64,000 nucleotides of DNA from Vicinamibacterales bacterium (GTDB taxonomy: Bacteria; Acidobacteriota; Vicinamibacteria; Vicinamibacterales; SCN-69-37). The translations under genes were made by a program, and so were the position numbers. The first letter of the stretch is position 1; every line of letters starts with the position of its first letter. The stretch covers positions 1,062-65,061 of the forward strand of contig JBCKZS010000011.1 of the NCBI GenBank assembly GCA_038918905.1. Direction: 5' to 3'. Below the pieces are notes generated by a model, which saw only the letters and a program-made list of their open reading frames with translations, did not search any database and was not told the DNA's origin. Shown here one piece after another: positions 10,747-26,113 of this stretch.

Positions 10747-11967
10747 TCACTCGAAGCGCAGGGCTTCGATCGGGTCCAGCCCGGCGGCTTTGCGGGCGGG
10801 GTAGTAGCCGAAGAACACGCCGATGCTGCCGGCGACGCCGAACGCCATGATGACGGCATCGACGGGCACGACCGCGGGCCAGTCGCGATACCAGCGCACG
10901 AACTCCGCAGCGCCGAACCCCAGGGCAATCCCCAGGACGCCGCCCGCCAGGCTGATGAGCAGCGCCTCGACGAGGAACTGCAGGAGCACGTCCCCGCCCC
11001 TGGCGCCGATCGCCATCCGCAGGCCAATCTCCCGCGTCCGTTCGGTGACCGACACCAGCATGATGTTCATGATGCCGATGCCGCCCACCATCAGCGAGAC
11101 GCCGGCGATGCCCGCCAGCAGCGATGTCAGCGTGTTGGTCGCTTCGGTCCGCATCGCCACCAGGTCGTCCATGGTCTGGACGCGGAAATCATCGTCCTGG
11201 CCCGGCCCGATGTCGTGTTGCACCCGCAGCAGTGTCGAGACGGCGGCTGACGCCTTCGGAATCATGTCGCCGGAGATGGCGGAGGCCAGAATGTAGTTCA
11301 GATGCTGGGCGCCCGTGATCTTCTTCTGCACCGTGGTGTAGGGCATGAAGACCTGGTCATCCTGGTTCTGGCCTGACGAGGACGCGCCCTTGGGGGCCAT
11401 GACGCCGACGACCTTGACGACGTGGTTGCGGATGCGGACCTGCTCGCCGGTCGGATCGACCTCGGCGCCGAAGAGGATCTCGGCGACGTTGACCCCCAGC
11501 GCCACGACCTTGGCCGCACTCTGCACGTCCTGTTCCGTGAAAAACGCGCCGTGTGTCATCGGCCACGACTTGACGAGCGTATAGTCCACGCCGGTGCCGA
11601 CGATGCTGGCGTTCCAGTTCTGATTGCCCGCGATGACCTGCTGGCGCGAGGTCACGCCCTCGGCGACATAGGCGATCTCCGGCAATCCACGAAGCGCCTG
11701 GGCGTCGGCCACGACCAGGCGCGGCGAGTGGCCTTCCCCCATGCGCACGCCGCCGGCCGTGGTGAAGTTACCTGGGAAAATCGTGATCATGTTGGTGCCG
11801 GCCCCGCGAATCTGTTCTTCAATCGCGGCCTGCGCGCCGTTGCCAAGGGCCACCAGCGTAATGACGGCGCCCACGCCGATGATCATGCCGAGCATGGTCA
11901 ACGACGTGCGCATCTTGTTGCGGGCCAGGGCCTTCAAGGCCACACGAAACACCATCAGGATTGACAT
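10747..11967 (-). CDS. MacB/FtsX-family ABC transporter permease (no ATPase adjacent)
   Basis: FRVALKALARNKMRTSLTMLGMIIGVGAVI N-terminus, a large periplasmic domain and a C-terminal FtsX helix bundle with ERTREIG. Confidence 0.85.
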   Translation of the reverse strand: MSILMVFRVALKALARNKMRTSLTMLGMIIGVGAVITLVALGNGAQAAIEEQIRGAGTNMITIFPGNFTTAGGVRMGEGHSPRLVVADAQALRGLPEIAYVAEGVTSRQQVIAGNQNWNASIVGTGVDYTLVKSWPMTHGAFFTEQDVQSAAKVVALGVNVAEILFGAEVDPTGEQVRIRNHVVKVVGVMAPKGASSSGQNQDDQVFMPYTTVQKKITGAQHLNYILASAISGDMIPKASAAVSTLLRVQHDIGPGQDDDFRVQTMDDLVAMRTEATNTLTSLLAGIAGVSLMVGGIGIMNIMLVSVTERTREIGLRMAIGARGGDVLLQFLVEALLISLAGGVLGIALGFGAAEFVRWYRDWPAVVPVDAVIMAFGVAGSIGVFFGYYPARKAAGLDPIEALRFE

Positions 11968-11970
11968 AGC

Positions 11971-12002
11971 AGTCCAGAAGTCCAGGAGTCCGGAAGTCCG
12001 AA
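11971..12002. repeat. 4 x 8-bp tandem repeat AGTCCRGR filling the secretin-permease spacer
   Basis: The units agtccaga, agtccagg, agtccgga and agtccgaa are contiguous and end 3 nt from the permease ATG. Confidence 0.9.
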
Positions 12003-12010
12003 TCCTTCGC

Positions 12011-13768
12011 TCACTTGATGATGACGTCCCTCGGCGGTGGGGGCACGATGGGCGTGAATTCCACCGGCAGCCCCCCGCCGCCGTCTCGCGGGACGCGCAG
12101 GGGACGCAGGTCTTCCTCGGTCAACTCCAACACCCGCACAATGTGCGGCGTGAGCGTGAGGACGATATCAGTTTCCTGGGTCTCGCGCTTGTTGCGGGCA
12201 AAGAGGCGCCCGATCACCGGCAGGTCGGACAGGCCGGGAATGCCATCGAGCACCGTGCGTTCGTTGTCGCGGATGAGGCCGGCCATGATGTTCGTCTCGC
12301 CATCACGCAGACGGAGGGTCGTGACGATCTCACGGTTGCCGAACGTCGGGTAGCCCGAGAAACCGGTGCCGGACACGGTGCTGAGCGACACCTTCACCTG
12401 CAGCGTGACGTCGTTGTTGGCGTGGGTGCGCGGCGTGATGTCGATGTTGACGCCGATGTTCTCGTAGTTGACGTTCTGGATGATTTGTTGATTGGCGCCC
12501 CCCTGAAAGAGCGGCACGACCTGCGAGGACGGCACGGGCACACGTTCCCCGAACTTGGCCTGGGCGAGCGAACCGTCGATGGTGCGCAGGTGCGGGTTGG
12601 CGAGCGTCCGGGTATTGGTGTCGGTCTTGAGCAGACGGTAGTAGAGCGCCGGGATGCCGGAGACCAGGACGTCGGCCTGCGTGAGGCTGCGCAGGCTCCG
12701 CAAGGTCATCTGATCGCTGTTGGGATCGAGGGCGCCGTCGATGCCTGGTGAACCGGGCGACGAAAACTGCAGGCCGTACTCACGGAGGTTGGTCCGATCC
12801 ACCTCGAGGATCTCGACGTTGATGATGACTTCGGCGCGGGCCTTGTCGATGGCCGCGAGGAGCCGTCCGACCGCCTGCAGGCGCTCCGGCGTGTCGCGAA
12901 TGGTCAACGTGTTGGTGCTGACCGGTTGAATCTGCCGCACGTCGGCGACCACACGCAGCAGGTCCACGACTTCCTTCATGTCGAGGTTGCTGACGAAGAA
13001 CGTGCGAATTTCCTCGTCGGTGTACTCGCGCCGTTTGGCCGGGTTGTCCGGAATGATCGTCAGGGTGCGGGGGCCCGTGACCTTGTAGAAGCTTGACGTG
13101 GCGGCCGCGACGGCGTCGAGCGCCCGGCGCAGCGTCATGTCGCGCAAACTGACTTCAGCGGGTGTCTCTCGGAACTGCGAGTCAAACACCACACTCAGGC
13201 CGCCGAGTTTCGCGAGCATCAGATAGAGCTGCCGGCTGGTCGTCCGCGGACCGGTGTCGATGGTGCCCGGCAGCGTCACGTCGGGCAGTTCAAGGCCCGA
13301 CGGCGGCAGGTCGCGCGTGCGGGCGAGGAGGGTCTCGAGCGCGGTGGGGCCCCCCTCGGGCACCGCCAGTTTCGCGCGCAGGGCGGTGCGGGCCGCGCGC
13401 AAGTCCGACTCGATGACGGCATTGGCCGGGTTCAACTCGTACGCCAACTGCAGCTCGACCACGGCATCGTCGTATTTGCCCTGCGAGAACAGGCGGCGGC
13501 CCCGGCCGAGGTGCGACTGGGAGGCGCGCAATTTCGCGCGGTCGAGGCCCAGACGGGCCTCGCGGTTCTCGGGTTGTGTGCGCACCAGCCGCGCGTAGTA
13601 CGCGACCGCGAGGTCGAAGTCTTCGGCGGTTTCGGCGGCGCGGGCCTGCCGCATCAGGGCACTCGTCGCACACGCGGCCGTGATGGCGAGTGCGACGCCG
13701 ACGAGAGCCAGCCGCGCCAGCCATCGCCGCGCGAACGTGTTACCGGGCGCGTCCAGACGATACGACAT
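12011..13768 (-). CDS. secretin-family outer-membrane channel with N-terminal lipobox and TPR region (putative liposecretin)
   Basis: LALVGVALAITAAC lipobox-like signal, TPR-like helices, then GspD/PilQ-type N domains and a secretin core (GIPGLSDLPVIGRLF, LTLTPHIV). The start is taken at MSYRL. An alternative ATG lies at 13801. Confidence 0.8.
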   Translation of the reverse strand: MSYRLDAPGNTFARRWLARLALVGVALAITAACATSALMRQARAAETAEDFDLAVAYYARLVRTQPENREARLGLDRAKLRASQSHLGRGRRLFSQGKYDDAVVELQLAYELNPANAVIESDLRAARTALRAKLAVPEGGPTALETLLARTRDLPPSGLELPDVTLPGTIDTGPRTTSRQLYLMLAKLGGLSVVFDSQFRETPAEVSLRDMTLRRALDAVAAATSSFYKVTGPRTLTIIPDNPAKRREYTDEEIRTFFVSNLDMKEVVDLLRVVADVRQIQPVSTNTLTIRDTPERLQAVGRLLAAIDKARAEVIINVEILEVDRTNLREYGLQFSSPGSPGIDGALDPNSDQMTLRSLRSLTQADVLVSGIPALYYRLLKTDTNTRTLANPHLRTIDGSLAQAKFGERVPVPSSQVVPLFQGGANQQIIQNVNYENIGVNIDITPRTHANNDVTLQVKVSLSTVSGTGFSGYPTFGNREIVTTLRLRDGETNIMAGLIRDNERTVLDGIPGLSDLPVIGRLFARNKRETQETDIVLTLTPHIVRVLELTEEDLRPLRVPRDGGGGLPVEFTPIVPPPPRDVIIK

Positions 13769-14408
13769 GGGTACCTCGTGGAAAGGTGAAGACAAACTCA
13801 CTGTCGGTCAACCCCGCGTTTTCGCGCAGGTTGGAGAACCGGATGATTGACGTGCCGCCCTGATGGTCCACCGTGCTCAGCCCCTTGAAGGCGAGTGAAG
13901 CGCGATCGACATACAGCGTCAACGTGGCGAAGTCGTCCTGGCGCACGCGCGGTGTGAGCCGCAGGTGCCACTCGCCGTCGGGATGGGTGGTGGGCATTGA
14001 CGCCGTGAAATCACGCTGCAGATCGCCCCGCCCCGTCAGAAACAGCACCGCGGTGGACAGGTTGTCGCCGGTGGGCATCGGACTTCTGGTGCCGGTGCGG
14101 TCGCTCGCGTTGTAGTAATACAGTTGCGCGCCGTCGGCGACCAGCGATTGACGATGGGGCGCGCTGTAGGCCCACCACATCCGGCCGGGCTTCTTGACAC
14201 GGACCTGGCCGCGTTGTTCCGATTGCACCGCCCGCAGGACTCCGCCCTGCATCGTCTGTGAAAAGTCCGCGCGGAAGTCGCGAATCGTCGCGTACCGCTT
14301 CTGCAGCGACGCGGCAAGGTCCCCCGGCGACGGCGCCTGACCGGCGACGGGGAGGGCGGCGGCCAGCAGGCCGACGACCAGCGCTGGCGTGATGCTCCAG
14401 GGGCGCAT
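13740..14408 (-). CDS. lolA: outer-membrane lipoprotein carrier protein LolA-like
   Basis: Signal peptide, then LQKRYATIRDFRADFSQT...G.VRVKKPGRMWW, collinear with E. coli LolA. Confidence 0.8.
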   Translation of the reverse strand: MRPWSITPALVVGLLAAALPVAGQAPSPGDLAASLQKRYATIRDFRADFSQTMQGGVLRAVQSEQRGQVRVKKPGRMWWAYSAPHRQSLVADGAQLYYYNASDRTGTRSPMPTGDNLSTAVLFLTGRGDLQRDFTASMPTTHPDGEWHLRLTPRVRQDDFATLTLYVDRASLAFKGLSTVDHQGGTSIIRFSNLRENAGLTDSEFVFTFPRGTHVVSSGRAR

Positions 14409-14480
14409 GCGCCCATGTTAGCCCGGATCTCACCACGCCGTGGAGGCGGGCGGGTATACTCGGCGGCGTGGAGGATGTCA

Positions 14481-14705
14481 ATGTCGCGTGACGAAGCGAA
14501 CGCCTTATTGGCGCTCAAGAATGCCTGGCTGGGGGTGGTGACCTCCGCGGCCGAGATCCAGCACATGTCGCCGGCCGTGCAGGCCGTGCCTGAGAAGACG
14601 CCCGTGGCGGACCTCGACCTCGAGACCTATCACCGGGTCACCATGGCCCACGCCAACGCCCTGATGGCCCTCCGCGGGCTCATTGAGGAACTCCGGCCCC
14701 GGTAG
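14481..14705 (+). CDS. hypothetical small protein
   Basis: 74-aa ORF with GGAGG 6 nt upstream of the ATG at 14481. No recognisable family. Confidence 0.3.
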   Translation: MSRDEANALLALKNAWLGVVTSAAEIQHMSPAVQAVPEKTPVADLDLETYHRVTMAHANALMALRGLIEELRPR

Positions 14706-24327: not shown

Positions 24328-24782
24328 GCGTGAGGATCCGCGGGGCAAGCGTGCTGCTGCTGGTGCTGCTCGGCGGCGTCCCGGTCGCGTCCGCGGCGCA
24401 GGAGACCGTCGCCATCGGGAGCCGTGTCGGCGTGCCTCCCTCCGGCTACCAGGGCGCGGGTCGCCGCGACCCGTTCGCCAGTCTCATCGCGGCGCCCACG
24501 CCGTCGTCAGCGCCCGCCGCGCCGAGGGCCGCCGGTCTGGCGGGGATCGCGGTGGCCGACGTGGCCGTGAAAGGCATCATCACGAGCGGCAACACCTGGA
24601 TCGCCCTCCTCGAAGCGCCCGATGGCAAGACGTACCTGGCGCGTCCGCAAGACCGCCTGCACGACGGTGTGGTGCGGCGCATCGATGCCGACGCGGTGGT
24701 GTTCCTGACCCAGGCCGGCTCGGGCGCGGGCGCCGCGCGCGAAGTGCGAAAGGGGCTTCGGCCCACGGCGGGTGACCAATGA
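24324..24782 (+). CDS. pilP: PilP-like pilus assembly protein
   Basis: Signal peptide, RDPF motif and a C-terminal beta domain (WIALLEAPDGKTYLARPQDRL). Its position lies between pilO and pilQ. Confidence 0.6.
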   Translation: MSVRIRGASVLLLVLLGGVPVASAAQETVAIGSRVGVPPSGYQGAGRRDPFASLIAAPTPSSAPAAPRAAGLAGIAVADVAVKGIITSGNTWIALLEAPDGKTYLARPQDRLHDGVVRRIDADAVVFLTQAGSGAGAAREVRKGLRPTAGDQ

Positions 24783-26113
24783 CACGTGTCCGGATCGTCT
24801 GCCTGTCGCTCGTGTGGGTAGTGCTGACGGCCCTGCCGGCCAGTCAGGTGCCGCCCGCGTTGACGACGCCGCCGGGGCAGCCGAAGCGCTACACGGGCGC
24901 GCCAGCGGACTTTGATTTTCAGGGCGCGGATCTCCGGATGGTGCTGCGGTCGTTTGCCGAGATCAGCAGGCTCAACCTGGTGATCGATCCGGCGGTCAAG
25001 GGCACGGTCGATATCAAGCTGACGCGTGTGCCCTGGGATCAGGCGCTGGAAATCATCCTCAAGACCAGCAAGCTCGGCTACATCGTCGAAGGCACCGTGG
25101 TGCGCATCGTGCCACTGCAGGTGCTGGCGTCGGAGGAAGACGAGCGGCAGAAGCTGATCGATGCGCAGGCGCCCGCGTCGTTGACCGTGCGGACGTTTCC
25201 GCTCAACTACGCGCAGGCGGCCGATCTGGCACCGTTGCTCAAGGCGGTGGTGTTGTCCAAACACGGCGACACCCAGGTGGATGTGCGCACCAATACGCTC
25301 ATCGTGCGCGACCTGCCCGACCATCTGGAGGCGGTGGCGGCGCTGGTGCAGACGCTCGACCGGGCCGAGCCCCAGGTGGAGATCGAAGCGCGCGTGGTGC
25401 AGACCAACCGCGATTCGGCCCGTGCCTTGGGCGTGCAGTGGGGCGGGACGGGACGGATGGCGCCCGACCTGGGCAACACGACCGGACTGGCATTCCCGAA
25501 TGCGGTGGCGGTCAGCGGCCGTGCCGGCGACGGTGCGGTGGTCAGTTTGCCTGTGAGCCCCGCCACCTCCACCGTCGGACTCGCGATGGGGGCGATCAAC
25601 GGCGCGTTCAATCTGGATGTCGCGCTGTCGGCGCTGGAGCGCTCCGGGAACGGACGCATTCTGTCGAGCCCGCGTGTCACCACGCAGAACAACCGCCAGG
25701 CCGAGATGACCCAGGGCGTGCAGATTCCGATTCAGACGGTGTCCAACAACACCGTGACCGTGACGTTCAAGGACGCGGCGCTGAAGCTGCTCGTCACGCC
25801 GCGGATCACCGCCGCGAACACCGTGATCATGGAGGTGGAACTCGAGAACGCGACACCCGACTTCACGCGCCAGGTCAACAACATCCCGCCGATCGACACG
25901 CAGCGCGCGCGCACGTCCGTGCAGGTCTCCGACGGTGCGACGACGGTGATCGGCGGCATCTTCGTGAGCCGCGAGCAGTCCACGCAGGATCGCACGCCCG
26001 GGTTTCACCGCCTGCCGCTGCTGGGATGGTTGTTCAAGCGCGACTTGACGCAGGACGAGAGTCGCGAACTGCTGATCTTCATCACACCTCGCATCCTGCG
26101 GAGCGGGTCATGA
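24779..26113 (+). CDS. pilQ: type IV pilus secretin PilQ (short form, no AMIN domain seen)
   Basis: FQGADLRMVLRSFAE N0-like region and a secretin core (RTPGFHRLPLLGWLF, LLIFITPRIL). Confidence 0.9.
   Translation: MTRVRIVCLSLVWVVLTALPASQVPPALTTPPGQPKRYTGAPADFDFQGADLRMVLRSFAEISRLNLVIDPAVKGTVDIKLTRVPWDQALEIILKTSKLGYIVEGTVVRIVPLQVLASEEDERQKLIDAQAPASLTVRTFPLNYAQAADLAPLLKAVVLSKHGDTQVDVRTNTLIVRDLPDHLEAVAALVQTLDRAEPQVEIEARVVQTNRDSARALGVQWGGTGRMAPDLGNTTGLAFPNAVAVSGRAGDGAVVSLPVSPATSTVGLAMGAINGAFNLDVALSALERSGNGRILSSPRVTTQNNRQAEMTQGVQIPIQTVSNNTVTVTFKDAALKLLVTPRITAANTVIMEVELENATPDFTRQVNNIPPIDTQRARTSVQVSDGATTVIGGIFVSREQSTQDRTPGFHRLPLLGWLFKRDLTQDESRELLIFITPRILRSGS

Follow-up and report, generated by a model that had tools for sequence, protein, structure and literature searches.

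XqhA, an orphan secretin of Pseudomonas aeruginosa, is said, in work attributed to Martinez et al. in 1998, to be able to substitute for XcpQ in the Xcp system. HxcQ of the Hxc type II secretion system of the same species is described as a lipidated secretin that probably reaches the outer membrane directly via the Lol pathway (PMC3230066; Viarre et al. 2009, J Biol Chem 284:33815). Lipoprotein pilotins built of tetratricopeptide repeats (TPR) are known as PilF, PilW and Tgl of type IVa pili, and as TadD with RcpA (PMC10499894). Here we describe a locus in a 64,000-nucleotide stretch of DNA (the window; positions 1,062 to 65,061 of contig JBCKZS010000011.1, assembly GCA_038918905.1) from a metagenome-assembled genome of a Vicinamibacterales bacterium (Acidobacteriota; 3.17 Mb, 91% complete), in which lolA is followed by a gene for a short TPR-bearing liposecretin and by a gene for a MacB-type FtsX permease. 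A full-text literature search found no description of a TPR-liposecretin or of a lolA-secretin operon.

The secretin of this locus resembles HxcQ in its lipoprotein signal and N-terminal Cys, in the absence of an S-domain and of a separate pilotin gene, and in its expected route to the outer membrane through the Lol pathway; the likeness to self-piloting liposecretins such as HxcQ had been pointed out in the original prediction, which was made from the letters of the window alone. Unlike HxcQ, which lacks a TPR region and belongs to the operon of its secretion system, it is an orphan paralogue behind lolA with predicted lipidation and with about three TPR repeats that separate the predicted lipid anchor from the N0-like domain. 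Like XqhA, it is an additional secretin paralogue encoded away from a secretion cluster that includes a secretin of its own; it differs in that substitution, reported as shown for XqhA, is something we infer for it, and in that XqhA is not known to be lipidated or linked to lolA. With PilF, PilW, Tgl and TadD it shares a lipid anchor and TPR repeats tied to secretin assembly, but here the repeats are fused to the secretin, number about three rather than about six, and show generic similarity only. LolA itself reaches the equivalog cut-off of the LolCDE-LolA pathway and the secretin is its predicted client, whereas the permease that adjoins the pair is not LolC or LolE. The permease is like those of MacAB-TolC type pumps with a separate ATPase in its MacB_PCD and FtsX domains, its conserved coupling helix and a paralogue in an operon elsewhere in the genome, and unlike them in having no ATPase, fusion-protein or duct gene beside it and a diverged periplasmic domain.

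We propose, with a probability of roughly 0.6, that the locus is one transcription unit built in two steps rather than a three-part machine, and that the secretin is a self-piloted spare channel expressed together with its carrier. The features of the unit are as follows.

10747 to 11967, minus strand: MacB-type FtsX permease (copy A), 406 amino acids (aa); MacB_PCD E 7.3e-47, FtsX E 2.3e-18.
11968 to 12010, minus strand: secretin-permease spacer of 43 nt with four 8-bp repeats (GGACTTCC, GGACTCCT, GGACTTCT, GGACTGCT), read from the sequence.
12011 to 13768 (GTG alternative start at 13801), minus strand: orphan short-type TPR-liposecretin, 585 aa from ATG 13768; from Pfam, NCBIfam, translation and an AlphaFold2 model.
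13740 to 14408, minus strand: lolA, periplasmic lipoprotein carrier, 222 aa, single copy; PF03548 E 2.6e-26, TIGR00547 119.1 bits.
14453 to 14481, minus strand: candidate sigma-70-type promoter, TTGACA (14481-14476), 17-nt spacer and TATACC (14458-14453).

All three minus-strand open reading frames (ORFs) were confirmed, and Pfam and NCBIfam profile searches agree with the identities first assigned to them. The best start of the secretin is ATG 13768, with GAGG 5 nt upstream, and as predicted it overlaps the 3' end of lolA (stop at 13740-13742), by 29 nt; the alternative start GTG 13801 would give an overlap of 62 nt. No strong Shine-Dalgarno sequence was seen in the secretin-permease spacer, and a terminator scan returned no terminator-like site in any junction of the three-gene unit. 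The candidate promoter lies about 45 nt upstream of the lolA ATG, and a consensus promoter scan was silent on it because the last base of its second hexamer is C. The three genes are real and probably co-transcribed, and this head-to-tail arrangement, with its overlap, its short spacer and no terminator between the genes, favours what had originally been proposed, namely a dedicated module of three proteins (LolA, liposecretin and permease) that would serve as a private route for sorting the channel or as a minimal envelope-spanning exporter. The unit is flanked by a convergent murA on one side and by a divergent 75-aa ORF, tRNA-Ala(CGC) and pfk on the other. There is no gsp gene among these flanking genes, and no ATP-binding cassette (ABC) ATPase-like ORF, defined by a Walker A plus a signature motif, was found within 4 kb of the permease. 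With these genes as flanks, the trio has neither a membrane-fusion gene nor any other secretion gene next to it. The absence of an ATPase and a fusion protein had been noted correctly, and it counts against a self-contained module.

The three genes differ in their distribution, which was followed in 15 loci of the same genus (secretin identity 69-79%) and in 18 loci outside the genus, which represent further families of the same order as well as a second order within Vicinamibacteria. The permease lies behind the secretin in 14 of the 15 same-genus loci, being absent from L011; the gene order in these loci is otherwise pfk, small ORF, lolA, secretin, ftsX, murA and murB. Outside the genus it lies there in none (0/18), but the lolA-secretin pair is present in all 18. 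Of the 16 out-of-genus loci with murA nearby, most have only about 100-300 bp between the end of the secretin and murA, and L026 and L027, in which the gap is larger, are likewise without the permease. Co-occurrence of the triad across relatives had been named beforehand as a test that could refute the module, and the triad is not conserved. Retention of the permease within the genus, where it is under purifying selection, speaks for a module; its absence from all loci outside the genus and from one inside speaks against, and a dedicated three-part system, which is largely refuted by this distribution, is in our judgement highly improbable.

What is conserved is the pair. Among 20 sampled Vicinamibacteria genomes, lolA lies directly upstream of the short secretin in 18, the exceptions (G073 and G044) being complete Vicinamibacterales genomes that have lolA and lack the short secretin. 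The pair is also retained in the second order (G278 and G059), with a CorC-like gene and lpdA as flanks instead of murA and murB, and the overlap or a very tight spacing is kept in nearly all loci. Direct adjacency of lolA and a secretin was found in none of 47 genomes from other classes, and the conserved unit is the lolA-secretin pair only, within one class.

The permease has the MacB_PCD plus four-helix FtsX architecture and matches the permease half of MacB with an E-value of 1.1e-82, compared with only 6.1e-05 for lolCE. Its assignment to LolC/E was rejected, and the earlier suggestion that it is LolCE-like had to be given up, as it scores 22.1 bits to TIGR02212 (cut-off 362). Contig C19 carries the true LolCE-LolD pair, with a LolCE-like gene (338 bits to TIGR02212) beside an ABC ATPase; C2, C3, C19, C23, C115 and C122 all denote contigs of the window's own genome.

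A whole-genome search showed two permease copies in the same-genus genomes, 73-80% and 67-75% identical to that of the window, and one close copy, at 58-60% identity, in each of four sampled families outside the genus. In the fetched loci, the more similar copy (A) always stands directly after the secretin and copy B always follows an ABC ATPase, with a membrane-fusion protein ahead of the ATPase where the contig extends. The four out-of-genus copies (L060-L063) are all in operons of fusion protein, ATPase and permease, and one genome (G009) has two more distant copies (47-48%) without a detected ATPase beside them. In a maximum-likelihood tree the secretin-adjacent permeases form a clade (support 100/99) within a genus-level clade that also holds the operon copies (100/100), and the outgroups to this genus clade are three of the out-of-genus operon copies (L060-L062). 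Copy A arose recently and only in this genus, by duplication of the permease gene of a MacAB-type operon, and this is a further point against a dedicated module.

In the window's own genome, copy B is at the end of contig C23 and is 72% identical to copy A; upstream of it are the ATPase (C23:1100-1909), the fusion protein (C23:1934-3685) and, further up, a resistance-nodulation-division pump. A second MacB-type ATPase (C3:27535-28326) is 61% identical to that of C23 and has no recognisable FtsX gene adjoining it, so the hunt for the missing ATPase, proposed at the outset, yielded two candidates. Copy A is under purifying selection, with a ratio of nonsynonymous to synonymous substitution rates of 0.07-0.20, similar to that of copy B. 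Identity between copies A and B is 94% in the coupling helix, ranges from 92 to 94% over the coupling helix and C-terminus, and is 62% in the periplasmic domain. Purifying selection and a nearly unchanged coupling helix beside a diverged periplasmic domain argue that copy A probably keeps using a MacB-type ATPase encoded elsewhere, most likely that of C23 or that of C3. It may also form a heterodimer with copy B; the LolC/LolE heterodimer is thought to stem from a permease duplication of this kind. On another contig (C2:29940-33791), a fusion protein is encoded together with two FtsX permeases in tandem, an ATPase-like ORF being absent within 4 kb, and unlinked pump parts seem to be common in this genome.

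The same observations bear on whether the duplicated permease, at the level of the genus, belongs to a MacB-type pump for which the secretin provides the way out through the outer membrane in place of a TolC-like duct. It was inserted directly behind the secretin and retained there, and its periplasmic domain has diverged while the cytoplasmic coupling parts have not, both of which would fit such a use. However, no fusion protein is encoded at the locus, and MacB pumps require one to reach the outer membrane; to our knowledge no secretin-MacB system has been described; the genus member L011 either lost the permease or never gained it; and insertion at a permissive operon end beside a convergent gene is a simpler account of its position. 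We therefore hold this use of the secretin to be very doubtful.

The secretin is divided as follows, with residues counted from ATG 13768 and model confidence given as the predicted local distance difference test (pLDDT).

13670 to 13768, minus strand: lipoprotein signal peptide and lipobox, residues 1-33 (...AITAAC33), by motif conservation.
13364 to 13669, minus strand: TPR region of about three repeats, residues 34-135; TPR_2 29.8 bits and TPR_14 26.7 bits, both over the cut-off, hairpins at pLDDT 95-98.
13019 to 13273, minus strand: N0-like (STN/FecR_C-like) domain, residues 166-250; alpha/beta fold in the model, pLDDT about 91-94.
12839 to 13012, minus strand: N3-type Secretin_N domain, residues 253-310; PF03958 E 1.7e-05, 25.3 bits (cut-off 28.2), fold in the model.
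12101 to 12838, minus strand: secretin pore domain, residues 311-546; PF00263 E 5.1e-38 (residues 391-556), beta-rich in the model.
12011 to 12100, minus strand: short Pro-rich disordered tail, pLDDT below 50 in the AlphaFold2 model.

The N-terminus of the secretin (...RRWLARLALVGVALAITAAC33-ATS) fits a lipoprotein signal, and the lipobox that had been proposed is kept after start assignment. Its pattern, [LVA][AST][GA]-C-A-[TS], with the Cys, is shared by all orthologous N-termini that could be read in 35 fetched loci, and Cys33 is nearly invariant in an alignment of 77 sequences (A1). A lipobox Cys is also present in the long-type paralogues described below (LTIVGGC). The AlphaFold2 model built from the same alignment (pLDDT 78.8) shows a signal helix, TPR hairpins, a linker, the N0-like and N3 domains and the secretin domain, and in this layout an S-domain is absent. 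The pore domain scores 130.8 bits to PF00263 against a cut-off of 27.5, and the Secretin_N match is just below its cut-off. There is no Pfam match over the N0-like region of the window secretin, FecR_C matching at the equivalent stretch in paralogues only. A Foldseek search with the model was led by ExeD, GspD and PilQ (E 2e-16 to 1e-12) and also gave InvG, pIV and RcpA; no pilotin was among the matches. The protein scores 149.1 bits to the GspD equivalog TIGR02517, under the cut-off of 351, and with no gsp operon around it, it does not qualify as a GspD. A specific likeness of the TPR domain to pilotins was considered and rejected, as it has generic, consensus-TPR matches only (PilF, 2fi7, E 0.97).

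This secretin is distinct from the pilus channel, as had been supposed, since a separate pilQ-type secretin lies at 24779-26113 of the window. That ORF is 444 aa here, compared with frames of 700-980 aa in other classes, and may lack AMIN domains or be split.

Full-length matches to the secretin, including the TPR part, were found in 286 of 301 sampled Acidobacteriota genomes and fall into two types of TPR-liposecretin, one long (frames of 700-1000 aa) and one short (about 585-640 aa and linked to lolA). The long type stands in a cluster of gspF, gspE, a PilN-like gene, secretin and pseudopilins in all the cluster-type loci fetched from other classes (L040-L044 and L048-L051), and five Vicinamibacterales genomes, two of them in the window's genus, share this cluster. 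In G004 its order is T2SSF, T2SSE with an MshEN domain, a 392-aa protein, a PilN-like protein, proteins of 271 and 199 aa, the TPR-secretin and three prepilin-type proteins, the last three carrying prepilin N-methylation motifs. The ATPase of the cluster has about equal PilB and GspE scores, below both cut-offs. In the window's genome the cluster is split over small contigs, with gspF-gspE on C115 and the long secretin on C122. The tree of secretins places the short type in a clade of its own (99/99), outside the clade of Vicinamibacteria long types (96/93) and weakly sister (85/92) to an orphan secretin of family f42, the neighbours of which are fadL, an acyl-CoA synthetase gene, ksgA, uppP and ftsK. 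The short type therefore represents an orphan paralogue of long standing rather than the channel that belongs to the cluster.

Three observations were made on the long type and its surroundings. Contig C122 (C122:3-3614) joins the long-type TPR-secretin to a LysM-like C-terminus and comM, whereas in same-genus relatives (L066 and L067) comM and the LysM gene are on the other strand at a distance of about 11 kb; probably the contig either is a chimera of the assembly or records a rearrangement. Several loci (L066-L069, L045, L048 and L050) encode, within a few kb of the cluster secretin, a Big_1/PKD-like protein that is possibly a cargo or accessory of the type II secretion-like system. In L045 (G258:C1:572000-591000), from a complete Vicinamibacterales genome, each strand carries a long-type TPR-secretin, the two being separated by about 6 kb; neither gspE nor gspF occurs inside the 19-kb fetched locus, and one of the copies shows an in-frame TGA in the search output.

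The lolA of the window passes the TIGR00547 equivalog cut-off of 112 bits, and its N-terminus, MRPWSITPALVVGLLAAALPVAGQA, resembles a signal peptide. It is the sole LolA match of the 91%-complete genome, and a private lipoprotein route through this LolA, as once proposed, does not agree with its being the only, housekeeping copy; this, together with the location of LolCE-LolD elsewhere, also tells against the dedicated module. No match to LolB was found in the window's genome. In a 100%-complete relative (L023, G218:C4:1056827-1057331), the lolA match directly upstream of the secretin is in two pieces in different frames, which is either a frameshift or a sequencing error in that genome's only lolA. 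Between lolA and tRNA-Ala, the 75-aa ORF (window 14478-14705, plus strand) is 54-77% identical in relatives and is inverted relative to lolA in some of their loci (L005, L008 and L013 were compared); Pfam scans of this ORF and of a 50-residue N-terminal fragment gave no matches.

The wider surroundings of lolA are also partly shared. It lies about 10-13 kb from the pilQ-type secretin in the window and in several acidobacterial families (G005, G276, G119, G143 and G165), with a distance of about 12 kb in several families besides that of the window, and this proximity looks like an old conserved neighbourhood. The adjacency of lolA and the short secretin could be inherited synteny without functional meaning, the short secretin being a decaying or redundant paralogue, and the position of lolA about 12 kb from pilMNOPQ in many families, together with the loss of the short secretin in G073 and G044, is in keeping with this. 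On the other hand, the secretin has remained intact, with 43-79% identity over the class, a nearly invariant lipobox Cys and many invariant residues, and its overlap with or very tight spacing to lolA is kept in nearly all loci. Synteny without function is thus unlikely.

Looser links between lolA-type genes and TPR-secretins exist in two further lineages. In the low-GC (guanine plus cytosine) family f42, where genes were read from ORF lists and Pfam, lolA is about 8 kb upstream of the cluster secretin, in the order lolA, an ECF-sigma-like (extracytoplasmic function) gene, a putative anti-sigma gene (both judged by N-terminal sequence), gspF, gspE, further genes and the secretin. In several other families lolA is 40-48 kb from the cluster secretin. 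G045, from another class, has on one strand (L071, G045:C51:69000-77725) a divergent FtsX, a LolD-like ABC ATPase, a LolA-like gene (98.8 bits, under the cut-off), genes for a 363-aa unknown protein, a PKD/Big_1 protein and a 190-aa unknown protein, and a TPR-secretin, which is about 3 kb from the LolA-like gene. This arrangement is nearer to the dedicated-module idea than the locus of the window is, and it lends that idea some support. However, its FtsX and LolA-like genes are only distantly related to those of the window (20-25% identity), and its cluster-specific proteins have no homologue in the window's genome; the cluster is therefore not the window's system, and was rejected as such.

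These links also bear on a role of the orphan liposecretin in the Lol pathway itself, for instance by receiving LolA-borne lipoproteins at the outer membrane or giving them a way out, in a lineage that lacks LolB. Conservation of the overlapped pair across the class even where its flanks have changed, the failure to find LolB in the genome and the lolA-type genes near TPR-secretins in f42 and G045 would be explained by such a role. But G073 and G044 have lolA without the short secretin, so that Lol function does not depend on the latter; in most other classes lolA shows no linkage to any secretin; and with its N0-like, N3 and secretin domains the protein is built as type IV filament channels usually are. 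A role of this kind is consequently very unlikely.

Our preferred reading, a transcription unit assembled in two steps around a self-piloted spare channel, runs as follows. The older part of the unit, which dates back to the origin of the class Vicinamibacteria, is the housekeeping lolA overlapped by the gene of an orphan TPR-liposecretin, a shorter paralogue of the outer-membrane channel of a type II secretion-like (type IV filament) system. The short secretin would be exported by Sec, acylated at Cys33, released by the LolCDE of contig C19 and carried by LolA to the outer membrane, where it would pilot itself and multimerise as HxcQ does, the fused TPR region perhaps standing in for a separate TPR pilotin. 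Translational coupling of lolA and the secretin would provide co-expression with the carrier that the secretin needs. By analogy with HxcQ, self-piloted delivery by the Lol pathway would be the most economical mechanism. As the N0-like and N3 domains are retained, the secretin most likely docks at the inner membrane on the type II secretion-like platform and serves it as a spare, or alternative, channel in the manner of XqhA. In the second step, in the ancestor of the window's genus, a duplicated permease of a MacAB-type pump was inserted between the secretin and murA.

Several points weigh against this reading. The type II secretion-like platform is encoded on other contigs (C115 and C122) with its own long secretin, and the link of the short secretin to it is one that we infer. 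The TPR part has no specific similarity to known pilotins. Persistence of the overlapped pair across the class through changes of its flanks may reflect more than co-expression, and the presence of a lolA-type gene 3-8 kb upstream of a TPR-secretin in f42 and G045 hints at a deeper connection between Lol and secretins. Furthermore, the permease, kept behind the secretin in nearly all members of the genus, may have a genus-specific functional link to it. If the coupling of lolA and liposecretin across the class were a real partnership, the secretin could take over lipoproteins from LolA at the outer membrane or let them out, for example for display on the surface. This assumes a phylum without LolB and would fit the looser arrangements of lolA near TPR-secretins, one of them with its own FtsX and ABC ATPase; it is, we believe, exceedingly improbable.

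With regard to the biology of these bacteria, the proposed export module is not a conserved unit and is therefore not worth pursuing as such. The permease is a clean, datable case of a MacB-type permease duplicated away from its ATPase. The extra secretin, which in one class is translationally coupled to the only lolA, offers a natural case for pilotin-free delivery of a secretin to the outer membrane and for the co-expression of Lol clients with their carrier. Almost universally, the Acidobacteriota have a lipid-anchored, TPR-fused secretin within an uncharacterised type II secretion-like machine.

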